A stretch of DNA of 64,000 nucleotides from an uncultured Mycoplasmatota bacterium (GTDB lineage: Bacteria; Bacillota_I; Bacilli_A; RF39; UBA660). Location of the stretch: NCBI GenBank assembly GCA_947571135.1, contig CANOWY010000002.1, positions 5,569 through 69,568 of the forward strand. The letters are read 5' to 3'. Below are positions 4,567-40,487 of the stretch, in pieces. The notes under the pieces are model-generated. The model was not told the origin of the DNA. It saw only the letters and a program-made list of their open reading frames with translations, and did no database searches. Made by a program: the position numbers and the translations under genes. Each line of letters begins with the position of its first letter. The first letter of the stretch is position 1.

Positions 4567-5448
4567 TTATTTTAAATACATTCCTAAATATCGTCTTTGA
4601 CTTTCTTCTTTAGTTTTATAATAGTTATAAACTTCTTCAAAGGCTGCACAATTTTGATTAAACTTATAAAATTTGCATATCTCTTCCCAAGTTGTACTCA
4701 TCTTTGTTTCTAATAATGAAGATAAAAAGTTTTCAAAATAAGGATATTGTTTTATTAAAATTTGGATATTTCTATCTGTAATTCTTAAAATAACACCTTG
4801 TAAATCTAAACCACTTTTTTCCTCTACTTTTGGAATACAATTAGAAAAATCATAAAGAGGTGCTAAATCAATATATTTTGTTATCGGGTTTTTTTCAAAT
4901 TGTAGATTGGCACTATTTCTATCTTTTTGTAACATATAAATATCTAATGCTAACATTTCTAAAATATGTTCTGTTAAAATTTCTCTGTTTTCATCACTAA
5001 CACATAATAATTTTAAGTTTTCAATATTCTCTACACAAAATGGTGCATAACTTAGATGAGTATATTTCTCATAAATGTCATAATAATGTTTGCCAAAGTA
5101 ATAAAGAAATCTTTCTTGTTTAAAATTTTTAGAAGCCAGTCCTATTTTTTTGTTTTTGATTTTTGCTATAAAATAAGAAACTACTTTCATATTGTTTTTC
5201 TGTGCTAAAAAACTTCCCATTAATTCGTCAAGCAAATAAAATGGATAGCCAAAGTTTTCCTCTTCTTCTTTAAAATAATACCAACTATTATTCATGAAAT
5301 ACATCATCTTCATATAGTCGTCTTGTTTTTCTAAATCCCCATTATTTGTGAGTAAAATTTCTTTTTTTTCTTCTTTTGAAACAGAATAATCATTTGAAAG
5401 TTTTATTGTAGGAGTATTTTCTGTAATTAAATTTTTTAAATATAACAT
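4567..5448 (-). CDS. Hypothetical protein with protein-kinase-like (HipA/APH-type) catalytic motifs
   Basis: 293 aa. It carries ...LQKDRNSAN... (DxxxxN) followed 18 residues later by YIDLAPLYDF, which resembles the catalytic-loop and Mg-binding LAPxYD motifs of HipA_C and APH-fold kinases. It is paralogous to the 47609-48679 protein. Confidence 0.45.
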   Translation of the reverse strand: MLYLKNLITENTPTIKLSNDYSVSKEEKKEILLTNNGDLEKQDDYMKMMYFMNNSWYYFKEEEENFGYPFYLLDELMGSFLAQKNNMKVVSYFIAKIKNKKIGLASKNFKQERFLYYFGKHYYDIYEKYTHLSYAPFCVENIENLKLLCVSDENREILTEHILEMLALDIYMLQKDRNSANLQFEKNPITKYIDLAPLYDFSNCIPKVEEKSGLDLQGVILRITDRNIQILIKQYPYFENFLSSLLETKMSTTWEEICKFYKFNQNCAAFEEVYNYYKTKEESQRRYLGMYLK

Positions 5449-29899: not shown

Positions 29900-30115
29900 T
29901 AATATACAGATAATTAATGAAGAAGGAAAGAGTAGTGCTTTTTCTTTATGAGAAGAGAGTTTACGTTTGGTGAGAGTAAATATAAAGATGGGTATGAACA
30001 TGGTTCTGGAGTTAAATCGGATACTTCACGTTATGAAGAAAAGTGCATGATTAAAATCATGAATTAAGGTGGTACCGCGGATATTGTTTCGCCCTTAATT
30101 TATGATTTTTTTGTT
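29900..30115 (+). promoter_or_regulatory. T-box riboswitch leader (probably Met-specific)
   Basis: The canonical T-box sequence AATTAAGGTGGTACCGCGG sits at 30062-30080. A terminator helix (AATTAAGG/CCTTAATT) is followed by a T8 run. Stem-I-like GA-rich elements and AUG triplets followed by A lie at about 30000-30010. The leader is upstream of the SDR-metG operon. Confidence 0.7.
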
Positions 30116-30126
30116 TTTAAGGAGGA

Positions 30127-30868
30127 ATGATGATGAATAAAGTAGTTATGATAACAGGTGCTCGTCGAGGTTTAGGACTTGCATGCGCTAAAAAATTTTC
30201 TGAGGGGGGGGTACTGCGTTGTATTAAATGGTAGAAGTCATGAAGAGGAAATGCATGTTATTTCTAAAGAGTTAGAAGAAAAATATTCTATAGAGTGTCT
30301 TGTTTGTATGGGAGATATTGCAAACGAAGAGGATGTAAAAAGAATGCTTGATGAAGTACAAAATAAATTTGGAAGATTGGATGTACTCGTTAATAACGCT
30401 GGGATTGTTTATGATATGGAAATAGAAGAAAGGGCAACAAGTGTATTTGAAGAAACCATGCATAATAATGTTACAGGTACTTATCTAATGTGTAAGTATT
30501 TTGGTAATTTCATGAAGAGCCAAGATTTTATGACGAGAATTATTAATATATCGAGTACAAATGGTATTAATTACAATATTCCAACAAGTATTGATTATGA
30601 TGCTTCTAAAGCGGCGATAAATTCTTTAACAAAAAACTTTGCATTAGAATATGCTCCAAATATTTTAGTGAATGCTATAGCGCCTCATTGGATAAATACG
30701 GAAATGAATGTTTCTTTATCTAAAGAAGAATTGGAAGAAGAGACATCAAAAATATATTTGAAGCGATTTGCAGAACCCGAAGAAATTGCAAATTTTGTAT
30801 ATTTTTTAGGTAGTGAAGAAAATACTTATATAACTAATGAAATAATGGTTATTTCAGGTGGATATTAA
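30127..30868 (+). pseudogene. SDR-family oxidoreductase (FabG-like) interrupted by a +1 frameshift in a G8 homopolymer. It may be phase-variable or a sequencing error.
   Basis: Frame 1 reads MMMNKVVMITGARRGLGLACAKKFSEGG and then hits a stop at 30232. Frame 2 (30179-30868) continues YCVVLNGRS...NAGIV...YxxxK. The frames switch at the G run 30204-30211, and deleting one G gives an intact ~246-aa SDR. Confidence 0.7.
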
Positions 30869-30886: not shown

Positions 30887-32410
30887 ATGAAAGAGAAATA
30901 TTATATATCAACAGCGATTGCTTATACTTCAGGAAAACCTCATATTGGAAATACGTATGAGATTGTTCTTGCAGATAGTATTGCTCGTTATAAAAGATTA
31001 AAAGGATACGATGTTTATTTTCAAACAGGTACAGATGAACATGGAGAAAAGATTGAATTAAAAGCCAAAGAAGCCGGAATTACTCCAAAAGAGTTTGTGG
31101 ATACTGTTGCAAATGAAATTAAAAGTATTTGGGACATTATGAATACGAGTTATGATAAATTTGTACGTACGACAGATGAACATCATGAAAAAATCGTTCA
31201 AAAAATATTTAAGAAGATGTTTGATAAGGGAGATATTTATTTAGGTGAATATAAAGGCCTTTATTGTACACCTTGCGAATCTTTTTGGACAGAAAGCCAA
31301 CTTGTGGATGGGAAATGTCCTGATTGTGGAAGAGATGTGGAATTAAAAGCAGAAGAGGCATACTTTTTTAAATTAAGTAAGTATCAAGACAAATTAATAG
31401 AATATATTGAGAACCATCCAGAATTTATAGAGCCTGAATCACGTAAAAATGAAATGGTTAATAATTTTTTAAAACCAGGATTGCAAGATTTATGTGTATC
31501 TCGTACTTCTTTCGATTGGGGAATACCTGTTGATTTTGATTCTAAACATGTTGTTTATGTATGGCTAGATGCTCTAACCAATTATATTACAAATATTGGG
31601 TATGACCCAGATGGCTCGAGTGAAGAATTTAACAAGTGGTGGCCAGCAGATTTACACTTGATTGGAAAAGATATTATTCGTTTTCATACTATTTATTGGC
31701 CATGTTTCTTAATGAGTTTAGAATTACCTTTACCAAAACAAGTTTTTGGGCATCCATGGCTTATTATGAGTGATGGAAAGATGAGTAAAAGTCGAGGGAA
31801 TGTGATTTATGCTGATGATTTAGTGAATGAATTCGGAGTAGATGCAGTGCGTTATTATGTATTGCATGAAATTCCTTTTGCTTCCGATGGAGTATTTACA
31901 AGAGATTTATTAATCGAAAGAGTTAATGGAGATTTAGTCAATATTTTAGGTAACTTAGTCAATCGTACAATTTCAATGGCTAAAAAATATTTTGAGAGTC
32001 ACTTAGAAAATAAAAAAGTAGTAGAAGACGTAGATACGGATTTAATATCTATGATAAATACTTTAGAAGAGAAAGTGGAAAGTAGAATGAATAAATTGGA
32101 GATTGGTTCTGCTATTGATGAGATATTTGATGTATTACGTCGTAGTAATAAATATATCGATGAAACTACTCCTTGGGTACTTGCAAAAGAAGAAGATAAG
32201 AAAGATAGATTAGAAACTGTACTTTATAATTTGATAGAAGCAATACGTGTGTGTGCAGTCTTTATAGAACCATTCTTGCCTGAAACTAGTGAGAAGATTT
32301 TAAGTCAGATTAATTCTAGTGATAAATCATTTCAGTATAATGAAAATATGGTATATGATTTGAATGAAGCAGAAATTTTGTTTCAAAGAATTGAAGTAGA
32401 AAAAGAATAA
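30887..32410 (+). CDS. metG: Methionine--tRNA ligase (short form without C-terminal tRNA-binding extension)
   Basis: 507 aa with HIGH-type motif (KPHIGNTYE), KMSKS, and zinc-knuckle cysteines CTPC...CPDC. Confidence 0.95.
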   Translation: MKEKYYISTAIAYTSGKPHIGNTYEIVLADSIARYKRLKGYDVYFQTGTDEHGEKIELKAKEAGITPKEFVDTVANEIKSIWDIMNTSYDKFVRTTDEHHEKIVQKIFKKMFDKGDIYLGEYKGLYCTPCESFWTESQLVDGKCPDCGRDVELKAEEAYFFKLSKYQDKLIEYIENHPEFIEPESRKNEMVNNFLKPGLQDLCVSRTSFDWGIPVDFDSKHVVYVWLDALTNYITNIGYDPDGSSEEFNKWWPADLHLIGKDIIRFHTIYWPCFLMSLELPLPKQVFGHPWLIMSDGKMSKSRGNVIYADDLVNEFGVDAVRYYVLHEIPFASDGVFTRDLLIERVNGDLVNILGNLVNRTISMAKKYFESHLENKKVVEDVDTDLISMINTLEEKVESRMNKLEIGSAIDEIFDVLRRSNKYIDETTPWVLAKEEDKKDRLETVLYNLIEAIRVCAVFIEPFLPETSEKILSQINSSDKSFQYNENMVYDLNEAEILFQRIEVEKE

Positions 32411-32584
32411 AGAACAAGTATATTACTTTTTTTCTTCTTTTTTTTAATTCAAGTGCTAGTCTTAAAAAAGAAATTTTAAGAATGAAATATGAGAGTATAT
32501 TTTATCAAAATGAAGAATATTGTAAAGATTTATACCATTAAAGAAAATAATAGTCGAATTGTAATTGAACTAAACTATTCTTTT

Positions 32585-34189
32585 TTATTTACTTAAAGAT
32601 TGTTTTAAAACTAGAGCACCATCTTCAGTAATTTCAAATTGATTTTGTTCTTCTAATAAAGGAGTGCTATTTGAATATATAATTGTTTTTTCGTTAAATT
32701 CTCCATTTAGTGTATTAAAATAGATTGTCCTGTTCTCTTTCTTCTCTTTAATTTGAAAATAATTTCCAATAGGATATATATATGTGTTTGCTTTGTTATA
32801 AATAATATTTCCTTTATTGTCTATTATGCTATTTTTAATTATTTCATAATTTCCAATAATAGTATTTCTTTTTGTTAAACAAGCATAACCATTTAAATAA
32901 CGAAAACCAAATTGTCCAAAATGAGGAGCAAATCCAAGTTGTTCATAGGGAATAGATTCTATTAAAACTTTTCCACATTCATCAATAATTTGCAAATTTT
33001 CATTAGTTTCATCGAAACCCAATCCATATTCTATTTTTGTATTTTCGTCAAAAAATTGGAAATGAATATCTTCATAAGGTGTTTCAATTGCTTTTTGTTT
33101 TGAAACAATATAAAGAATTCCTCCTTCTTTTTGTTTTAGCCAAATTTTGTCCGCTTTATTACATACCAAGTAATCGTAATTCATTACATTATCTAATTCA
33201 TATAAAATATTAAAATCCTCGTCTAATAAAGTTATATCATAGCAAATATCGTTTCCATGATTATCATAAATTATATTATTTTTAGTAATGGTTATTTTAG
33301 TTGCAAGTCCACTCATATCTAAAGGTCGGATTCCTATTCTTTCTGACTCAAAATGTTTTCCGTTAATAAGATTTATTCCAACAATTTTTGTATTTTCATT
33401 TATTTTAATATACATTAATAAAGTATCATTTTCTATTGTTGAATCAGTGATTGTTCCTAAAAGCGGTAACGGGAATTGTTTTAATATTTCTTGATCTGGA
33501 CTAATAACATAAATATTGTTATTTTTAACAATACAAATATTTCTCTTGTAATAATGTGGTTTTGTTTGGTCTTTTTTTATAACAATTTCGTTTTGTGTAT
33601 CAAATTTCTTTTCTCTATATTTTTCTATTCTTATTTCTTCTTTATCTCTGTCAATTAGTATTAAATTGTCATCGACTAAATAAGGCCAGGCTTTTCCACA
33701 ATCAAAAAGTTGCTCACCTTCTTCATTTAAAATTAATGTTCTTCTTTTTAGATAATCCTCTATAGTTGTTTCAAATAAATATAAGTCACTCCCTAAACAA
33801 CAAAATATTTCTGGCTTTAAGCCCTCGGTATTTGGAATATATTCTTTTGTTTTTAGATTAAATAATTTTTCTCCTATTTCAACTATATTTTCACTTATTT
33901 TAAAACAATTGTCATATTTATCAAAGGAAATTATAATTTCTTTTGTAGTAAAATTTATTAAATGTTTTTTCCGTTCCTTTTCCATTATGACATAAGTGGT
34001 TCCATTCATTTCGAATACATCATAAAGTTTATTAAATTCGGTGAATTCTAGAATTAGTGTTCCATTTGTTAAAAATTTTCTATTATTGCTTAATTCTATA
34101 AATAAAAATGCATCTTTTTTAACTATGTTTACTACTTTTACTTCTTTATTTCTTATACTTGTATTATTGTTACTTATTTCATTATCCAT
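32585..34189 (-). CDS. Hypothetical protein (534 aa), N/I/K-rich with no recognised domain
   Basis: A long ORF on the lagging strand with no signal peptide or catalytic motif detected. Confidence 0.5.
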   Translation of the reverse strand: MDNEISNNNTSIRNKEVKVVNIVKKDAFLFIELSNNRKFLTNGTLILEFTEFNKLYDVFEMNGTTYVIMEKERKKHLINFTTKEIIISFDKYDNCFKISENIVEIGEKLFNLKTKEYIPNTEGLKPEIFCCLGSDLYLFETTIEDYLKRRTLILNEEGEQLFDCGKAWPYLVDDNLILIDRDKEEIRIEKYREKKFDTQNEIVIKKDQTKPHYYKRNICIVKNNNIYVISPDQEILKQFPLPLLGTITDSTIENDTLLMYIKINENTKIVGINLINGKHFESERIGIRPLDMSGLATKITITKNNIIYDNHGNDICYDITLLDEDFNILYELDNVMNYDYLVCNKADKIWLKQKEGGILYIVSKQKAIETPYEDIHFQFFDENTKIEYGLGFDETNENLQIIDECGKVLIESIPYEQLGFAPHFGQFGFRYLNGYACLTKRNTIIGNYEIIKNSIIDNKGNIIYNKANTYIYPIGNYFQIKEKKENRTIYFNTLNGEFNEKTIIYSNSTPLLEEQNQFEITEDGALVLKQSLSK

Positions 34190-34257
34190 AGTCTTTCTCT
34201 CTTCTTTTTTATTATAAAGAAATATATTTTATTTGCAAGAAAAAACGAAAGTCTAGA

Positions 34258-34468
34258 AATTTACTTCTTCTTTTATTTTTGCTATATTGTTTTAGGAGGG
34301 ATACTTATGTTTTGTAATACACATTGTCATTTGTTTTAGGAATATTATGAATATATTGATGAAATTATAAAACTTGCAAAAGAACATGGGGTAACTCGTA
34401 TGATTGTAGCGGGTTGTGATGATAAGTCAAATAAAGAAGATCTTTAGTAGAAAAAGAAGAGATTTATA
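34258..34468 (+). repeat. Degenerate ~210-bp duplicate of the tatD promoter, RBS and first ~58 codons (copy 1)
   Basis: It is about 90% identical to 36802-37017. It carries a 1-nt deletion (creating TAG) and a 5-nt deletion, so it encodes only a broken TatD N-terminus (MFCNTHCHLF*). Confidence 0.8.
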
Positions 34469-34634
34469 CCAAGGACAAATTATTTGTGAAACAAAGAAAG
34501 AAGATTTAGAAAGTCATTTGTATGATGTTATAACTGCTTCTAATAATCCTTATATAGAAGAAGAATTTAATGAAGCATTATTACTTGCTTTACATAAACA
34601 AAGCGTGGATATGAAAAAAAATCCTGTTAAATAA
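34416..34634 (+). other. 72-aa chimeric ORF
   Basis: Its first 17 codons derive from the duplicated tatD fragment in a shifted frame. The rest (…ICETKKEDLESHLYDVITASNNPYIEEEFNEALLLALHKQSVDMKKNPVK) has no match I recognise. Confidence 0.2.
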
Positions 34635-34692
34635 AATCTTGACTCTTCCCTTGAGGTTAGGATTAAAATTCAAGTGAAAGAGAGGAAGATTT

Positions 34693-35682
34693 ATGATTAA
34701 AATTGGAGATTTTGCAAAATTATTTAATGTTTCACTTAAAACAATTCGTTATTATGAAAAGAAGGGTTTATTAACTCCTGCTTTAGTAGATATTTATTCG
34801 GGGTATAGGTATTTTGATAAATCCAATATTATACAAATGAGTAAAATTATGGCTTTAAAGGAATTAGGCTTAGAATTAAGTGAAATTCATAATTTAAGTG
34901 ATGATTTAGTACAGAAAAAAATAAAAGAATATGAAGAACAAATAAAAAAATATTCCAATCAAATTCATATTTTGAAAACTCTTTCAAAAGAAAATGGAGG
35001 AATGAAAAATTTGAAAACGTTTATTAATGACGAAAATGCTATAGGGAAATGGCAATTAGAAGGAGTTTATGAAAGAAAGGAAGACTATCCCCAAAAAAAA
35101 ATTGAATTTGATTTAGGAATAAAAGAATTATATTTAATGCCTAGTGGTCAAGAATATTGGGTCATTTCTTGGACAAAAGGAATTCTTTATATTTCGGGTC
35201 GTGAAAATAAGTACGAGATAGAAAATGACACGATGTTTGTGGAGTTAGTGGATCCAATGGATAAAAATGAGGCTAAGATAGTAGTATACAAAAGAGTAGA
35301 TAATCGTATTTATACTATTGACGATATTCGAGTAAGAGACAATACGCAAATAGATTTTGTGGAAGATAAAAAATTGATTGGCTTTTGGAAAAGTATTGAT
35401 TTTACTAATAATAAGGATGAATTTGCTTTAAGAGTGGAAAAGAGCACGTATGATTTATCCATGAAACAAATTGTTATTACTCCTGACAATAAGGTTATGA
35501 TTGATTATGGGGATAATATTATTAATACTACTTATACTAAAGGTTATATTCTTGATTTATGTTTTAAAGATACACTTTGTAAATATGATTATAAAACTAT
35601 TAATGGAAAAGATTATTTAATTGTTGAGTGGAAAAGCGGCGATTATATATTTGGAAAAATGATAAATGCTATTATGTATTAG
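34693..35682 (+). CDS. MerR-family transcriptional regulator with a large uncharacterised C-terminal domain
   Basis: The N-terminal MerR HTH is IKIGDFAKLFNVSLKTIRYYEKKGLL...GYRYFD. A coiled-coil linker and a ~200-aa beta-rich C-terminal domain follow. Confidence 0.75.
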   Translation: MIKIGDFAKLFNVSLKTIRYYEKKGLLTPALVDIYSGYRYFDKSNIIQMSKIMALKELGLELSEIHNLSDDLVQKKIKEYEEQIKKYSNQIHILKTLSKENGGMKNLKTFINDENAIGKWQLEGVYERKEDYPQKKIEFDLGIKELYLMPSGQEYWVISWTKGILYISGRENKYEIENDTMFVELVDPMDKNEAKIVVYKRVDNRIYTIDDIRVRDNTQIDFVEDKKLIGFWKSIDFTNNKDEFALRVEKSTYDLSMKQIVITPDNKVMIDYGDNIINTTYTKGYILDLCFKDTLCKYDYKTINGKDYLIVEWKSGDYIFGKMINAIMY

Positions 35683-35822
35683 AAAAAGAACAGATTTGAT
35701 ATTTTTATTTATATAGATTTTTATAAGCATAAATTTTTGAAGAAAATATATCAGTCAAGTTACTCATTTTTCCAAGGGGGTTATCATGTATTGTATATTA
35801 TTAATGTGGCCTTTTTTAACTC

Positions 35823-35851
35823 TTGACAGAAGGTCGGGGGGGGGTTATAAT
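35823..35851 (+). promoter_or_regulatory. Consensus sigma-A promoter TTGACA-N17-TATAAT whose spacer contains a G9 homopolymer (candidate phase-variation switch)
   Basis: The -35 is at 35823-35828, the spacer GAAGGTCGGGGGGGGGT at 35829-35845 (G9 at 35836-35844), and the -10 TATAAT at 35846-35851. The gene start is at 35880. Confidence 0.6.
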
Positions 35852-35879
35852 ACCAAACAGTTCAAGGGGTGTTTAGTGT

Positions 35880-36803
35880 ATGTGTAATCCAGAATTAAAA
35901 CAAGATATTTCTATGGCTACTAATATTATTCATGATAATAGTAATTATAAAGATAAGTATATAAAACATTGTGTCATTCCTGCTAGAGGAACAGAAAATG
36001 TGACTGAGTTATTTTCAAAAATAGAGAGTTCTTTCGAAAAATCTCTTATTGTAACAGGAAGTGGCGATCAAGCGTTAGAGGCTATCTTATATGGTGCAAA
36101 AGAAATTCATTCTTTTGATATAAATGCTCTTGCTAAATATGGTAGCGCTTTAAAATTTGCGGCGATTGAGGCATTGGAATATAATGAGTTTTGTGCATTT
36201 TATACTAAGATGTTTCCTACACAGTTATATAAAAAAATACGTGAGTTTTTAAAAGGAAATTTTTTACTTTTTTGGGATTGCATTTTTGATTATGCTTATA
36301 ACTTTGATGTTTACCATTCCCTTTTCAATGCTGATGTTCATGGAAATTTAACAAAGTTTGGTTTTTCTATTTATGATAATAAAAAAGCATATTATCAAAT
36401 TAAAGATAGATTGGGTAAAGTTGCTATTACTTATGCAACGTGTGATCTTTTAGATATACGTTCAAAATTTATGGAAGAAAATTCTTATGATTTTGTTTAT
36501 CTTTCTAATATATTTTATTATATTAATCAAACGCCTGAAATATTTAGTGATTTTATTTTACAAAATATATATCCTCTTTTAAAAGAAGATGGGGAAATGA
36601 TATTGCATTATTTATATAGTGTTTATGGAAGAAGTGATGCTATTTTTAGATCTATTTTAGAAGACATTATTTATGGAGATCAAGACATAAAAGATATTGA
36701 AGAATTTGGTAAGTATTTGAATATGAAGAAATACATTATTGAAAGTTCTGGCTATGGTTTTGGATATAAAGATAAAGATGTTGCTCTTTCTTTGAAGAGG
36801 TAA
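35880..36803 (+). CDS. Hypothetical protein, possibly DUF3419-like (BtaA-N-like SAM-dependent transferase fold)
   Basis: 307 aa. The motif block LIVTGSGDQALEAILYGAKEIHSFDINALAKYGSALKFAAIEALEY resembles the DUF3419 N-terminal signature. The assignment is tentative. Confidence 0.4.
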   Translation: MCNPELKQDISMATNIIHDNSNYKDKYIKHCVIPARGTENVTELFSKIESSFEKSLIVTGSGDQALEAILYGAKEIHSFDINALAKYGSALKFAAIEALEYNEFCAFYTKMFPTQLYKKIREFLKGNFLLFWDCIFDYAYNFDVYHSLFNADVHGNLTKFGFSIYDNKKAYYQIKDRLGKVAITYATCDLLDIRSKFMEENSYDFVYLSNIFYYINQTPEIFSDFILQNIYPLLKEDGEMILHYLYSVYGRSDAIFRSILEDIIYGDQDIKDIEEFGKYLNMKKYIIESSGYGFGYKDKDVALSLKR

Positions 36804-36851
36804 ATTTACTTCTTCTTTTGTTTTTGCTATATTGGTTTAGGAGGGATACTT

Positions 36852-37598
36852 ATGTTTTGTGATACACATTGTCATTTGTTTCGAGAGTATTATGAAGATG
36901 TTGATGAAATTATAAAACTTGCAAAAGAAAATGGGGTAAATCGTATGATTGTAGCAGGGTGTGATGATAAGTCAAATAAAGAAGTATTATCTTTAGTAGA
37001 AAAAGAAGAGATTTATGGGACACTTGGCATACATCCAGAAGAAGTAGAAAATTTTAAAGAGAGTGATTTGAATTTTATTGAAGAAAATTTACAGAATAAA
37101 AAAATTATTGCGATTGGAGAAATTGGCTTGGATTATCATTATGGAAAAGAAAATAGGAAAGATCAAATTCAATTATTTGAGTTACAACTTGCTTTAGCAG
37201 AGAAATATCATATACCAGTAGTGGTTCATTCTAGAGAGGCTACTTTAGATACAATTAATTCTTTAAAAAAATATAATGTTAAAGGTGTTATTCATTCTTT
37301 TAGTGGGAGTTTAGAAACTGCTAAAATTTATATAGAGATGGGTTTTTTACTTGGTGTTAATGGTGTAATTACATTTAAAAATTGTAATTTGAAAGATGTC
37401 ATAAAGGAAATTGATTTGCATAATATTGTATTAGAGACTGATTCTCCTTACTTAACTCCTGTACCTTTTCGTGGAAAAAGGAATGATTCTAGTAAAATTT
37501 CAGTAATTGCTGATTATATTTGTGAGTTAAAAAATGTTTCACGTGTAAAGTTAAGTGAAGTTACAAATGTAAATATTAAACAGTTTTTTGACATTTAG
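36852..37598 (+). CDS. tatD: TatD-family metal-dependent DNase/hydrolase
   Basis: 248 aa with CDTHCHL at the N-terminus and conserved His/Glu/Asp positions. It is in the yabD position after metG. Confidence 0.9.
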   Translation: MFCDTHCHLFREYYEDVDEIIKLAKENGVNRMIVAGCDDKSNKEVLSLVEKEEIYGTLGIHPEEVENFKESDLNFIEENLQNKKIIAIGEIGLDYHYGKENRKDQIQLFELQLALAEKYHIPVVVHSREATLDTINSLKKYNVKGVIHSFSGSLETAKIYIEMGFLLGVNGVITFKNCNLKDVIKEIDLHNIVLETDSPYLTPVPFRGKRNDSSKISVIADYICELKNVSRVKLSEVTNVNIKQFFDI

Positions 37599-37636
37599 TT
37601 TGATGTTTGGTAAACTTATTTTAGTAAGAAATAATA

Positions 37637-38191
37637 TTGCGAGGTGAAATAAGAATGTGTCAATTTTTTAAAATGATTAAAAAGTTTTCTCAATTAACTT
37701 TGCTTATTTTACTTGTGATATTTGTTGAATCTAGTAATAATATAAAAGAGACTAAAGTTTTAAATGATAATTATAATAAATCTATTGATTTGGCCACTAT
37801 GGCTATGAAGTTAAAAGAAGATATTGCAAATGATTTATATAGTGCAAAAGATACTTTTACGGGAGATTTAACTAGTTATTTGCCGACTTGTCCTTTGTGT
37901 AGTGGACGTCTTGCATGTCTTCCTAAATATAATGTATTGGACGGAACGGAAACATATGATGATCTTTCTTATGGGAATGTTAAAATAGTTGCGTCTAGTA
38001 AAAACTTGCCTTGTGGTTCCATTGTTCGTTTGAATAAAACAAAATTATCTGATGAACCTGTTCTTGCTATAGTACTTGATCGAGGGGTTTTAGGGAATGA
38101 TTTGGATTTGTTAACTTCAAATGAAGCGTATGCTTATCAAGTTGGTCGTTCAACCGTTACTTATGATGTTTTGAGAAATGGATGGCAATAA
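37637..38191 (+). CDS. 3D-domain protein (YabE-like), probably membrane-anchored or secreted
   Basis: It has an N-terminal hydrophobic segment and a C-terminal 3D/RlpA-like region (GSIVRL...LAIVLDRG...D). This is the yabE position between tatD and rsmA. Confidence 0.55.
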   Translation: MRGEIRMCQFFKMIKKFSQLTLLILLVIFVESSNNIKETKVLNDNYNKSIDLATMAMKLKEDIANDLYSAKDTFTGDLTSYLPTCPLCSGRLACLPKYNVLDGTETYDDLSYGNVKIVASSKNLPCGSIVRLNKTKLSDEPVLAIVLDRGVLGNDLDLLTSNEAYAYQVGRSTVTYDVLRNGWQ

Positions 38192-38215
38192 GCCATTTTT
38201 TCAGTTGGAGGAATT

Positions 38216-38998
38216 ATGGAATATATAAAAGCAAAAAAAAAATATGGACAAAATTTTTTGAAAAATGAGGAAGTATTAATTAAGATTGTTTCTAGTGTGG
38301 AAATAGACATGAATGATTTGATTTTAGAGATTGGTCCTGGCATGGGAGCATTAACTTCTTATCTTGTTAAGAAAGATATTTCTCTTCTTTGTTATGAAAT
38401 TGATGAACGTATGCAGCCATTTTTAAAAAAATTTGAAGGTGAAAAGTGTAAGATTATCTATGATGATTTTTTAAAAAGAAATATTGTAGATGATATAAAA
38501 AAGATACCTTTTCAAAATCTATATGTAGTTGCAAATATTCCTTATTATATTACTTCTCCTATTATTGTAAAGTTAATAGAGATGGAAGAAAAGCCCAAGG
38601 AGATTGTATTGTTGGTTCAAAAAGAGTTTGCAGAAAGAATTGTAGCGAGTGCAGGACATAAGGAATATAATGCTTTTACTTTATTTGTCGATATAGAGTA
38701 TGAGGCAGAACTTTTATTTTTAGTGGATAGAAATCAATTTTTTCCTGTACCAAATGTGGATAGTGCGGTTATTAAGTTAACGAGAAAAGAAAAAATAGAT
38801 ATCTTAAATAAGGAGAAATATTTAAGATTTATTCGAGATGCTTTTTCAAATAAGCGTAAAACTTTAAGAAATAATTTAAAAGAATATGACTGGGAAAAAC
38901 TAAAAAATATTTTAGAAAAATTGGGCTATAAGGAAAATGTTCGTGCCGAAGAGATAAATAAAGAAGATTTTAAAAAATTAGTCAATCAATATGAATAG
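38216..38998 (+). CDS. rsmA: 16S rRNA (adenine1518/1519-N6)-dimethyltransferase RsmA/KsgA
   Basis: 260 aa with the KKYGQNFL N-terminal signature and SAM motif LEIGPGMGALT. Confidence 0.93.
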   Translation: MEYIKAKKKYGQNFLKNEEVLIKIVSSVEIDMNDLILEIGPGMGALTSYLVKKDISLLCYEIDERMQPFLKKFEGEKCKIIYDDFLKRNIVDDIKKIPFQNLYVVANIPYYITSPIIVKLIEMEEKPKEIVLLVQKEFAERIVASAGHKEYNAFTLFVDIEYEAELLFLVDRNQFFPVPNVDSAVIKLTRKEKIDILNKEKYLRFIRDAFSNKRKTLRNNLKEYDWEKLKNILEKLGYKENVRAEEINKEDFKKLVNQYE

Positions 38999-39025
38999 AT
39001 GATTTTTATGAAAGTAATATTTTAG

Positions 39026-39066
39026 CGATATAGCATATAAAGTTTAGTGCTGTATCGTTTTTTTTA
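39026..39066 (+). terminator. Rho-independent terminator after rsmA
   Basis: A 10-bp stem (39026-39035 / 39048-39057) with a 12-nt loop, followed by a T9 run. Confidence 0.55.
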
Positions 39067-39138
39067 TTACGTTTTAGAAAACGATAAAAATTATGCAAAA
39101 AAATAGTATTTTTGCATAGAATATATTGGTGAAGAATT

Positions 39139-39918
39139 ATGCCAGTTAAAAAAGGCGATATTGTGACTCGTAAAAGTTATGAACATGATACTTTGTTTAA
39201 AGTAATGAATATTAAAGGAAATATTTGTTATTTAAAAGGACTAGATGTTCGTTTGTATGCTGATAGTGAAGTAAGTGATTTAAGTTTGGCAACAGAAGAA
39301 GAAATAGAAGAATTAAAAAAGGAGGAAAAGGAAGAAAATGATGAGCCGCTTGATCGTAGTGCTTTCTTTTATCTTCCAGGAAAAGTTTTGCATTTGGACG
39401 GGGATAATGAATATTTAGGAAGATGTCTTGCTTATTATAAGAAACATAATATTTTTGCAGTTGGAAAAAGAGTAAGTGAATCTGAAGTGGCTAGTAAAAT
39501 TCGTAGTATGCTTCAAGAATATAATCCTGATATTGTGATTATTACAGGCCATGACGCTTATTTTAGAAAAAAAGGTAAAATGGAAGATATTCATAATTAT
39601 AAGAATACGGAAAATTTTGTGAAAGCCGTGAAAGAGTGTAGAAGATATGAAAAAAGCCATGAAAAATTAGTAGTGATTGCTGGGGCTTGTCAAAGTAATT
39701 ATGAAGAACTTATTAAGGCGGGGGCTAATTTTGCTTCTAGTCCAAAGCGTGTAAATATTCATTGCTTGGATCCAGCAATTATTGCTACAACATTATCTTT
39801 AACGGAACGGAATAAGGAAGTTGATTTGATTGCTATGCTTGAAAAAACAAAATACGGGAGTGATGGCATGGGGGGAATTATTTCCAATGGTCTTATGTAT
39901 GTTGGATATCCAAGATAA
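39139..39918 (+). CDS. yabG: Sporulation-specific protease YabG
   Basis: There is a full-length match to B. subtilis YabG (GDIVTRKSY...LF, LPGKVLHLDGD, DIVIITGHDAY, VIAGACQSNYEELIKAGANFASSPKRVNIHCLDP). Confidence 0.88.
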   Translation: MPVKKGDIVTRKSYEHDTLFKVMNIKGNICYLKGLDVRLYADSEVSDLSLATEEEIEELKKEEKEENDEPLDRSAFFYLPGKVLHLDGDNEYLGRCLAYYKKHNIFAVGKRVSESEVASKIRSMLQEYNPDIVIITGHDAYFRKKGKMEDIHNYKNTENFVKAVKECRRYEKSHEKLVVIAGACQSNYEELIKAGANFASSPKRVNIHCLDPAIIATTLSLTERNKEVDLIAMLEKTKYGSDGMGGIISNGLMYVGYPR

Positions 39919-39927
39919 GGGGGAAAT

Positions 39928-40140
39928 ATGAATTTAAATATAATTAAAGAGGAAGTAAAAGCACATTTGAAAGGAAATGTAGAGGTTTCCGTTTTTGGAA
40001 TGCGAAATAAAAATTATAAGGTAGTGGGATATATTTCAAATATTTATCCTAGTATTTTTACGGTAAATGAGAGTGGTGTAGAGAAGAGTTTTAGTTATTC
40101 TGATATTGCCACTGGTGAAATAAGTATCAAGTATTTGTAA
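39928..40140 (+). CDS. veg: Veg protein
   Basis: 70 aa. IKEEVKAHLKGNV...YPSIFTV...SFSYSDI matches the B. subtilis Veg pattern, and the position after yabG is conserved. Confidence 0.75.
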   Translation: MNLNIIKEEVKAHLKGNVEVSVFGMRNKNYKVVGYISNIYPSIFTVNESGVEKSFSYSDIATGEISIKYL

Positions 40141-40220
40141 AAACTCTTGCTAACTTTGGAAATTTATCATAAAATAGTATTAAGTTACTAGAAAATAAAA
40201 ACTTTAGAAGGAGTGTAAAC

Positions 40221-40487
40221 ATGAAAATTACATCAGTAACAGTTCGTAAATTTGAAAGAGATGGAAACAGAATGAAAGGAATCGCAACCGTAGTGGTAGA
40301 TGATGCCTTTGCTATTCACGATATTCGTATTATTGAAGGCGATAATGGTTTGTTTATTGCCATGCCAAGTAGAAAAACTGCCACTGGCGAATATAAAGAT
40401 ATTGCTCATCCTATCAATACAGAAGTTCGTAATATGTTTCAAAATGCAATCTTAGAAGAATACAGTAAAACAAGTGTTGAGGAATAG
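40221..40487 (+). CDS. spoVG: Septation/sporulation regulator SpoVG
   Basis: 88 aa. [64 protein letters not shown] is near-identical in pattern to B. subtilis SpoVG. Confidence 0.92.

Follow-up and report, generated by a model that had tools for sequence, protein, structure and literature searches.

Among the uncultured gut Bacilli of this clade, the gap between metG and tatD is a gene slot of hypervariable content, and in the window (the whole stretch of 64,000 nucleotides that was analysed) its content is probably a mosaic of two slot versions, in which a direct repeat of the tatD start arose as a by-product of illegitimate recombination and the result then spread by homologous recombination. 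The left copy of this repeat is a dead remnant of a tatD start and was not left by a mobile cargo element. A sequence-only reading of the same DNA had proposed such an element, that is, a segment with a chimeric ORF, a MerR-family regulator and a DUF3419-like gene that was inserted into, or recombined at, the start of tatD, the target being duplicated in the process; recombination at the 5′ end of tatD was borne out, but the cargo was not. The features that we discuss are collected in Table 1.

Table 1. Features of the metG-tatD slot in the window (positions are those of the window).
Feature	Position	Strand	Remarks
metG	30887..32410	+	Pfam; conserved left flank of the variable slot
g278 5′ remnant	32482..32541	+	ATG, 19 codons, TAA; homologous to L004 8031-8091
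AGATTTATACCA, left copy	32526..32537	+	12-nt direct repeat flanking the inserted block
u534 (534 aa)	32585..34189	-	divergent gene; tiny family
Left repeat	34257..34467	+	hairpin right arm, tatD promoter and RBS, 55 decayed tatD codons
ORF72, chimeric	34416..34634	+	first ~17 codons are out-of-frame tatD′; remainder is g278 tail
AGATTTATACCA, right copy	34460..34471	+	joins tatD codon 55 to g278 codon ~222
Promoter-like TTGACT-19-TAAAAT upstream of the MerR gene	34639..34669	+	read from sequence; same in L004
MerR-family regulator	34693..35682	+	Pfam PF13411, PF00376
Right half of metG terminator (as in Form II)	35704..35722	+	Form II homology resumes
Consensus promoter TTGACA-17-TATAAT	35823..35851	+	G9 run 35836-35844 in spacer
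DUF3419-like gene	35880..36803	+	PF11899; SAM-methyltransferase fold
Right repeat	36802..37016	+	functional tatD promoter and first 55 codons
Intact tatD	36852..37598	+	Pfam PF01026

The repeat is the sole significant self-match in the whole 64-kb window (blastn, 311 bits, E 7e-85; the best match in 10 shuffles did not exceed 44 bits). When aligned with MAFFT, its copies are identical at 198 of 211 aligned bases (93.8%) and differ by one 4-nt gap, which lowers the identity to 92% once it is counted; the bracketing of these genes by the 5′ end of tatD is real, with the ends given in Table 1 and an identity of ~94% rather than the ~90% proposed. The core of the repeat is 183 nt, ungapped and 93% identical, with the copies at a spacing of 2545; a 39-nt ungapped repeat (34429–34467) that overlaps the end of the core past the gap is 87% identical to its partner at a spacing of 2549. 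Both copies keep a promoter-like TTTACT-17-TG-TATATT (34260–34288 in the left, 36805–36833 in the right), an AGGAGG ribosome-binding site and the tatD ATG (34307 and 36852), as the sequence-only reading had described, and then run for 55 codons, not for ~58. Of the two, the right copy alone leads into an intact TatD (PF01026, E 4e-74), again as described. The left copy is indeed degraded, a decaying pseudo-fragment with a D4N change, a TAG at 34337–34339 and a deletion after 34439 that removes 4 nt, not 5. The TAG, at codon 11, had been attributed to a 1-nt deletion; it is a substitution that leaves the length unchanged, and the same site is CAG in L004 and CGA in the right copy. A terminator hairpin, GAAGAGGTA-AAT-TTACTTCTTC, lies at 36794–36815; its loop coincides with the left end of the repeat, and its left arm forms the final codons of the DUF3419-like gene.

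The same structure, which we call Form I, was found in at least nine samples or independent assemblies, with 96.7–100% identity along entire contigs (ENA and Logan contigs); in the data of ENA, Logan and NCBI, the source organism is found only in rodent and rabbit gut. The islet at 32400–35800 has zero mismatches in both contigs that were profiled, and the left copy is identical in 8 of the 8 Form I contigs aligned across the repeat. Repeats may mislead assemblers, and several short contigs stop near the repeats or the poly-G run, so an assembly duplication or a chimeric contig had to be considered; we give such an artefact almost no credence, because at least nine independent samples and two assembly pipelines yield the identical structure, single contigs span both copies (L085, 9.9 kb; L098, 14 kb) and the copies are distinguishable by the 13 positions at which they differ.

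Conspecific strains with the arrangement metG-DUF3419-tatD (Form II; L090, L092, L093 and L094) encode a TatD protein identical to that of the window. The sequence-only reading had suggested looking for relatives without the 2.5 kb between the repeats; what the Form II strains lack is instead 32409–35703, and this 3.3-kb segment is the unit that varies among strains, its right edge being placed at the half-terminator of Table 1 because homology to Form II resumes there. The right repeat region (36800–37000) has one mismatch to L090 and L093. L090 is near-identical to the window before 31000 and mismatch-free across 36400–40400 except for six scattered differences, but it is 4–11% diverged in 31000–32408 and 35704–36400; in mismatch profiles the first of these tracts, the 3′ two-thirds of metG, is diverged to this extent from conspecific Form II strains. 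Diverged tracts amid near-identity show that the whole allele was imported by homologous recombination, with the left crossover tract in the 3′ two-thirds of metG and the right crossover at about 36400 in the DUF3419-like gene; these tracts record the transfer of the allele by homology and do not date the original join.

Among 80 species loci, the slot is empty in most of the distant ones (metG to tatD, 2–30 bp), and in close relatives it contains g278 (12 loci), DUF3419 (6–7), MerR (2) or else other genes. Four gene families, g278, a MerR-type regulator, a DUF3419-like methyltransferase-fold protein and u534, are differently combined in these relatives (e.g., metG-g278-MerR-tatD in L004 and L111 and metG-MerR-DUF3419-x-tatD in L117). 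DUF3419 also adjoins tatD in L001, L009, L017 and L070, and it is the native neighbor of tatD in the conspecific Form II strains and in sister species. The same genes are present in the slot with no tatD repeat in L001, L004, L010, L111 and L117, an outcome that the sequence-only reading had itself named as refuting the cargo, and no second tatD fragment was found in other related loci; the slot has left other scars, that is, a 3′ fragment of u534 in L111 and split pseudogenes in L002 and L013. The interval shows no GC anomaly. No ORF in 32400–36800 matches a transposase, an integrase or a defence family in Pfam, NCBIfam or PADLOC; the earlier statement that integrases and transposases are absent stands for these ORFs. 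We had also considered L004 as a deletion derivative that keeps a scar of DUF3419, TTGAAGAGGTAA; this was downgraded to ambiguous because TTGAAGAGGTAA is the left arm of the conserved terminator hairpin and is present too where g278 is upstream (L003).

The MerR-family regulator was proposed to have a large C-terminal domain, and both parts of this assignment were confirmed. Its N-terminal domain matches PF13411 (E 2.6e-13) and PF00376 (E 5.9e-11), both above the cut-offs; the model combines a winged helix-turn-helix and a long helix with a confidently folded C-terminal domain of two beta-rich lobes. The PDB matches in a structure search are MerR proteins, with whole-chain Foldseek matches to EcmrR and BmrR; the C-terminal domain has no match in Pfam, NCBIfam or PADLOC, and no known ligand domain was identified in it. 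The DNA at 34454–35706 is 95.9% identical to L004, as compared with 81–88% for the core and flanking genes of L004, which points to lateral exchange of this segment. A spacing of 19 nt, as in the promoter-like sequence upstream of the gene, is typical of MerR-controlled promoters. The regulator resembles BmrR, EcmrR and TipAL in its N-terminal winged helix, long dimerisation helix, putative C-terminal ligand-type domain and upstream promoter-like sequence with a 19-nt spacer; unlike in these proteins, its C-terminal domain is not clearly GyrI-like and weakly resembles the double beta-barrel DUF3598 and DUF4822.

The DUF3419-like gene is predicted to encode a DUF3419/BtaA-like, SAM-dependent enzyme with a Rossmann methyltransferase fold: the match to PF11899 (37.2 bits, cut-off 28.2) covers only positions 35–116 of the 385 in the profile, the model (pTM 0.83) matches many SAM methyltransferases, and a profile search gave 3189 representatives. 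As the sequence-only reading had it, the gene is preceded by a TTGACA-17-TATAAT promoter with a run of nine G in the spacer. The length of this run differs among near-identical strains: G9, G10 and G11 share one flank haplotype (window, L096 and L098), G9 and G11 were found in L092 and L093, and the spacer measures 16 to 19 nt; this variation makes the sequence a candidate phase-variable (contingency) promoter. The run and a second, nearby poly-G tract (30204–30211) are both length-variable and, in our opinion, more interesting than the repeat.

The gene u534 has no match in Pfam, NCBIfam or PADLOC; its homologues divergently adjoin an intact tatD in 5 of the 5 related arrangements examined (L104/L105, L106, L107, L108/L109 and L110; seven contigs). 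In the window, the left tatD fragment is contiguous with u534, and 32540–34467 aligns to L104 unbroken (a 1949-nt alignment, 80.9%), with collinearity from the metG stop to tatD codon 55. No close (>90%) donor of this block was found among the sampled genomes, and an exact-match scan of JGI metagenome contigs for the progenitor of the left copy, using a 34-nt left-copy-specific string, returned no match.

The block splits a gene of ~278 aa (g278) that likewise matches nothing in Pfam, NCBIfam or PADLOC. The 19 codons of its head (32482–32538) lie on the far side of u534 from ORF72, and ORF72 contains its last ~57 codons; this ORF is chimeric, as proposed, with tatD′ out of frame followed by the g278 tail (34468–34634, 90% identical to L004 at the protein level). 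The 64 kb contain exactly two copies of the 12-nt sequence AGATTTATACCA, one to the left and one to the right of the block, and the first 8 nt of the right copy are also native to tatD (37009–37016). The junctions of the block have 8–12 nt of microhomology; the match at the tatD/g278 junction extends over 8–13 nt and is 12 of 13 nt with an L107-type g278 allele; the left junction reads ATACCATTAAAGAAAATAATAGTC, and TAAAGAA is present there. Junction microhomology, both parental arrangements and an adjacent tract of homologous exchange are each present, which is consistent with a product of illegitimate or homology-facilitated recombination. However, TACCA at the 32526–32537 site is absent from every other g278 allele compared, and its presence in the g278 head implies an extra step (internal deletion of g278 or a template switch), so a single clean exchange would not suffice.

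Form II, the repeat-free relatives, the collinearity with L104 and the split g278 together argue that the piece that moved is u534 with the tatD start, not MerR with DUF3419. The anatomy, junction sequences, parental arrangements in related genomes and recombination tracts are observed; from them we infer in what order and by what mechanism the events took place and how the DNA entered. One parent would be version X, metG-g278-MerR-DUF3419-tatD (the arrangements in L004, L111 and L117 are X-like), and the other version Y, metG-u534(reverse)-tatD. A piece of Y, from just past the metG stop to tatD codon 55, would have entered the g278 of X through illegitimate recombination at short stretches of microhomology, replacing about 600 nt of g278; the resulting order is g278 head, u534, promoter-bearing dead tatD start, g278 tail, MerR, DUF3419 and the genuine tatD. 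On this view, the direct repeat of 211 bp would be a by-product, because the tatD start of Y is now upstream of the tatD of X. The most likely route would be homology-facilitated illegitimate recombination (HFIR) following DNA uptake, in one or two steps, after which ordinary homologous recombination, crossing over within metG and within the DUF3419-like gene, would have carried the finished mosaic from strain to strain. One predicted intermediate is a g278 that is internally deleted and without the block, TGTAAAGATTTATACCAAGGACAA. An intact X allele of the window's exact lineage was not found, and the parental alleles are those suggested by more distant relatives. Counting against the mosaic, a few variants absent in L001 and L004 are common to both copies of the repeat, whose last 45 nt are identical; to explain this, gene conversion after the join, a donor that is a close relative or an ancestry that the copies partly share is needed.

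A rival explanation is a tandem duplication in situ, on one chromosome, from the g278 tail to the tatD start, with the left unit later lost or replaced by u534: the two copies are mutually closest, sharing AAATTT and GCTATA as well as the identical 3′ end, and the junction microhomology is also compatible. We nevertheless consider this duplication unlikely. At about 7 sites the left copy is ancestral (L004-like) and the right copy and L001 are derived; u534, the promoter and tatD′ form a single unbroken alignment to Y alleles, so their attachment is older than the junction; and more steps are needed than for the mosaic. Insertion of the chimeric ORF, MerR and DUF3419 as cargo with target duplication is very unlikely, even though the direct repeats do bracket these genes and the MerR segment, 96% identical to L004, was laterally exchanged. 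The empty site is the wrong one, since the strain-variable unit is 32409–35703; the DUF3419-tatD pairing is native in the Form II strains and in four relatives; the left copy adjoins u534 just as the tatD start does in Y alleles; ORF72 is what remains of the 3′ end of a gene that begins beyond u534; repeats of 211 bp that are 6% diverged are a misfit with target-site duplication; and a recombinase is absent. A transposon, IS or integrative element was rejected for lack of a recombinase, terminal inverted repeats and a GC anomaly (inverted repeats at the boundaries are weak and at chance level only) and because the conspecific empty site is wrong. Integration of a Campbell-type circle at the tatD start was also rejected, as the DUF3419-like gene would then be expected on the left side of the left copy.

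The repeats and the kept tatD promoter might, finally, be a working switch, that is, a device for the reversible, RecA-dependent loop-out or amplification of MerR-DUF3419, or one that brings MerR under the housekeeping tatD promoter, the additional copy having been selected for that purpose. A length of two hundred bp with 94% identity suffices for RecA-mediated recombination, and the left copy, which retains a promoter and RBS, is 100% conserved across Form I strains; however, no excised form occurs in the 9 contigs read for u534 or the 19 read for TatD (the contexts listed being Form I or Form II, save short contigs too truncated to classify), and disabling changes are accumulating in the left copy, so we regard a switch as highly improbable. 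If true, the device would, together with the poly-G-controlled DUF3419 promoter, turn the metG-tatD slot of reduced-genome gut Bacilli into a contingency locus with several layers.

The mosaic reveals no new mobile element or mechanism; it is ordinary biology in an undescribed organism. Its value would be that of a clean natural case, with the strain-level intermediates and the two parental arrangements in hand, of slot diversification between housekeeping genes in uncultured gut Bacilli with small genomes: illegitimate joins at 8–12-nt microhomologies are followed by homologous spread, and gene fragments remain. For annotation, ORF72 and the left tatD start should be treated as scars, not genes.

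Campbell-type integration by a single crossover produces direct repeats of the homologous segment, and the window shares with it two diverged direct copies of a chromosomal segment around intervening genes; however, neither the order of the genes nor the split g278 is what integration of a circle with the tatD start would leave. The event in the window also resembles HFIR, which has been described for Acinetobacter, Streptococcus pneumoniae, Pseudomonas stutzeri and E. coli conjugation (PMC3240628; refs 41, 42 and 47 of PMC5361080). In HFIR, one side is joined by homology (here, the diverged metG tract) and the other at a microhomology of a few bases, foreign DNA is gained while recipient DNA is lost (here, about 600 nt of g278), and a recombinase gene is not needed. 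Unlike in HFIR, the u534-tatD′ block looks illegitimately joined at either end, barring an intermediate allele, and the event in the window is reconstructed from natural variants. The slot also resembles the sites of sequential displacement of type VI effector-immunity modules in Vibrio cholerae and those of orphan Rhs/CDI 3′ ends (PMC5361080). As far as we can tell, the modules in the window are no toxin-immunity pairs, and the remnant there, unlike those in V. cholerae, includes part of the conserved flank; in both, however, alternative modules are swapped by recombination in a fixed slot between conserved genes, and truncated remnants persist, here as the tatD′, g278′ and u534′ scars.

The duplicated tatD start is a scar of recombination in the metG-tatD gap, a chromosomal slot of variable content. 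The sequence-only reading had described a direct repeat of the tatD start, and this is confirmed by three analyses. A direct-repeat search of the window aligns 34257-34439 with 36802-36984 (183 nt ungapped, 93% identity, spacing 2545) and, past a gap, finds a further repeat family, 39 nt without gaps, that overlaps this core at its end (34429-34467; 87% identity to its partner, spacing 2549); when the two copies are aligned together with relatives (MAFFT), they agree at 198 of 211 aligned positions, with one 4-nt gap; and in self-BLAST of the whole window the repeat pair is the sole match (311 bits, E 7e-85; maximum of 44 bits in ten composition-preserving shuffles). As had been read, both copies carry the tatD promoter and ribosome-binding site (AGGAGG), and an intact TatD (PF01026, E 4e-74) follows the right copy only. 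Some details change: the repeat contains 55 tatD codons, not about 58; the deletion in the left copy is 4 nt, not 5; and the TAG at 34337-34339, attributed to a 1-nt deletion, is a base substitution that leaves the length unchanged (CAG in L004, a wild-mouse bin; CGA in the right copy). At its left edge the repeat coincides with a terminator hairpin loop; the final codons of the DUF3419-like gene form the left arm of this hairpin, and of its two arms the left copy retains just the right one.

Features of the metG-tatD interval (window positions) and contents of the gap in related loci
Feature	Position or loci	Detail
Left repeat copy	34257-34467	
Right repeat copy	36802-37016	
Promoter-like TTTACT-17-TG-TATATT	34260-34288; 36805-36833	both copies
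tatD ATG	34307; 36852	left copy; right copy
Terminator hairpin	36794-36815	
u534 gene (534 aa)	32585-34189 (-)	
Promoter-like TTGACT-19 nt-TAAAAT	34639-34669	upstream of MerR gene
DUF3419-like gene promoter, perfect TTGACA-17-TATAAT	35823-35851	G9 run in spacer, 35836-35844
g278 (~278-aa protein)	12 loci	metG-tatD gap
DUF3419-like protein	6-7 loci	metG-tatD gap
MerR-type protein	L004 and L010	metG-tatD gap
Several singletons		metG-tatD gap of close subclade
metG-u534-tatD	L104/L105	
metG-DUF3419-u534-tatD	L106	
metG-g278-u534-tatD	L107, L108/L109, L110	

An assembly duplication artefact, for which the sequence-only reading had allowed, is ruled out: in exact-protein look-ups, ENA and Logan assemblies from at least nine samples share this structure (96.7-100% identity over the whole length), and single contigs span both copies (L085, 9.9 kb; L098, 14 kb). 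Among the eight contigs of the window's arrangement (Form I) that were aligned over the left copy, this copy does not differ at a single base, even in strains that are only ~97% identical overall, and the islet at 32400-35800 has zero mismatches in both assemblies profiled.

A TatD scan using one genome per species gave 80 loci, every one in a bin of uncultured Bacilli or "Tenericutes" from the gut of mouse, rabbit, chicken or human; among the relatives with names are Candidatus Coprovivens and Candidatus Onthocola. The gene order, metG-tatD-yabE-like-rsmA-yabG-veg-spoVG, is presumably that of Bacillus subtilis. Because 2-30 bp separate metG from tatD in most of the distant relatives, and 0-4 varying genes from a few families lie between them in the close subclade, the gap is a hypervariable slot. 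A second small variable slot lies a few kb downstream, between rsmA and yabG (~39000-39140), where L098, L107, L108 and L111 have an extra HAD_SAK_2-family gene (about 201-205 aa) that the window lacks. Adjoining the metG-tatD slot, at ~30120-30130, L090 and L098 have an extra 1.6 kb (a 114-aa gene and an APH-type kinase, between the T-box leader at 29911-30099 and dehydrogenase-metG), a strain-level insertion/deletion also lacking in the window.

Positions 34454-35706 are 95.9% identical to L004 (metG-g278-MerR-tatD), compared with 81-88% for the flanking core genes. Residues 14-72 of the chimeric 72-codon frame (34416-34634) correspond to the last 59 residues of L004 g278, and the first 19 g278 codons with their upstream region lie directly after metG (32482-32538; homology to L004 extends to 32542); therefore, g278 is split. 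Its halves are separated by the reverse-strand gene u534 and by the left tatD fragment. The window at 32540-34467 gives a single unbroken 1949-nt alignment with L104 (80.9%); it starts just past the metG stop, takes in u534 and the tatD promoter and ends exactly at codon 55 of tatD, so the left tatD fragment belongs with u534. A divergent u534 homologue is directly upstream of intact tatD in all five related arrangements examined (seven contigs). The family (522-538 aa) has only six homologue clusters, with no Pfam, NCBIfam or PADLOC match and no detectable domain; its identities of 58-75%, much lower than those of the flanking genes, suggest fast evolution. In this clade it was found, in the window and in L104-L110, only adjoining tatD.

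At the right junction, tatD ...GAAGAGATTTAT is joined to g278 ...(A)GATTTATACCAAGG, with a 12/13-nt overlap using the L107-type g278 allele and an exact overlap of ATTTAT using L004. The 12-mer AGATTTATACCA occurs exactly twice in 64 kb (32526-32537 and 34460-34471), once on each side of the u534-tatD fragment block; at the left junction, the g278 head with AGATTTATACCA passes into what in L104 is the terminator after the metG stop (TAAAGAAAA...AATAGTC). Both junctions are joins at microhomology. The reported absence of an integrase or transposase holds: Pfam, NCBIfam and PADLOC searches found no transposase, integrase or defence-family gene in the interval, GC content shows no anomaly there, and its inverted repeats are weak.

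The sequence-only reading had further taken the inter-repeat segment for cargo inserted into, or recombined at, the tatD 5' end with target duplication. Four conspecific contigs with TatD identical to the window's (L090, L092, L093 and L094) have metG-DUF3419-tatD (Form II); their homology to the window ends at 32408 and resumes at 35704 (L090, L094) or near 35823-35836 (L092, L093), so the strain-variable segment is 32409-35703 and not the interval between the repeats. At 35704 the window has just the right half of the metG terminator present in Form II. The DUF3419-like gene is the native neighbour of tatD, and the cargo interpretation is not supported. The mismatch profile of L090 against the window shows six scattered mismatches in all across 36400-40400 (including the right repeat and tatD), 4-11% divergence in 31000-32408 and 35704-36400, and 0-13 mismatches per 200 nt, mostly ≤5, before 31000; this is the signature of a whole slot allele imported by homologous recombination, with crossovers in metG and in the DUF3419-like gene. 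The Form I contigs L098 and L100 are identical over 32400-35800 yet have different metG 3' alleles.

The MerR protein belongs to a well-populated family (333-345 aa, 262 clusters) whose distant members are encoded elsewhere in the chromosome. Relative to L004 (9890-9932) and L098, the window gene has a 1-nt deletion/frameshift near its end (35660-35682), giving the C-terminus MINAIMY* instead of MINGYYVLEKEQI* and 329 residues instead of 335-343; near-invariant C-terminal tyrosines in the family alignment suggest that the tail matters. In its AlphaFold model (mean pLDDT 88), two beta-rich lobes accompany a winged helix and a long helix; over the whole chain the model matches EcmrR and BmrR in the PDB, and its C-terminal part bears just a weak resemblance to double beta-barrel DUF3598 and DUF4822 proteins. 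The DUF3419-like protein, from a large, uncharacterised family (3189 representatives at E≤1e-3, profile search), has a predicted SAM-methyltransferase fold (pTM 0.83). Its promoter is a strong candidate for phase variation: among contigs that share one flank haplotype, the window and seven others have G9, L096 has G10 and L098 has G11; on another haplotype, L092 has G9 and L093 has G11; and the spacer ranges from 16 to 19 nt across strains. Genome GC is 27.5%, and just three G or C runs of ≥6 occur in 64 kb. Another poly-G run (30204-30211) is inside the short-chain dehydrogenase gene directly upstream of metG: the window and L098 have G8, and L081/L099 (otherwise two mismatches from the window over 7.8-8.6 kb) have G9, neither of which is in frame; G7 in L090 is in frame (244-aa product). 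The pattern looks like on/off switching by frameshift.

How did the second tatD start arise? In the history that is most likely, an allele metG-g278-MerR-DUF3419-tatD (related orders are present in L004, L111 and L117) would have recombined illegitimately with an allele metG-u534(reverse)-tatD, and the part of the latter between the metG stop and codon 55 of tatD would have replaced g278 codons ~20-221. TACCA in the g278 head, found at this position in no other g278 allele, implies an extra step: g278 may have lost an internal piece between two AAAGATTTA sites, there may have been an intermediate u534 allele, or the template may have switched. Decay of the left tatD start would have followed (D4N, the TAG, the 4-nt deletion, and further substitutions unique to it). 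Other scars in the slot support displacement: in L111 (metG-g278-MerR-tatD), a 59-residue remnant of the u534 C-terminus (4765-4941) between g278 and MerR is an independent displacement scar, g278 is split in L002, and DUF3419 is split in L013.

Tandem duplication in situ, from the g278 tail to the tatD start, with the left unit later lost or replaced by u534, is improbable. Its main support is a few variants exclusive to the left and right copies and the identity of their last 45 nt, for which a closely related donor or subsequent gene conversion may account. In identity to the left copy, the right copy ranks first (93.8%), ahead of L004 (91.5%) and L001 (87.7%). At ~7 sites the left copy has the L004-like or ancestral base, and a derived base is common to the right copy and L001, which speaks against a recent duplication of the right copy in situ. 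A functional switch operated by the repeats is unlikely because no excised form occurs among the contigs examined for u534 (9) and TatD (19); short unclassifiable contigs aside, those listed are Form I or Form II.

The known process that fits best is homology-facilitated illegitimate recombination, in which one end is exchanged by homology and the other is joined illegitimately (PMC3240628); it has been proposed for the sequential displacement of type VI modules with orphan remnants (PMC5361080). A recombination scar of this sort is an already known kind of thing, here in an undescribed organism.
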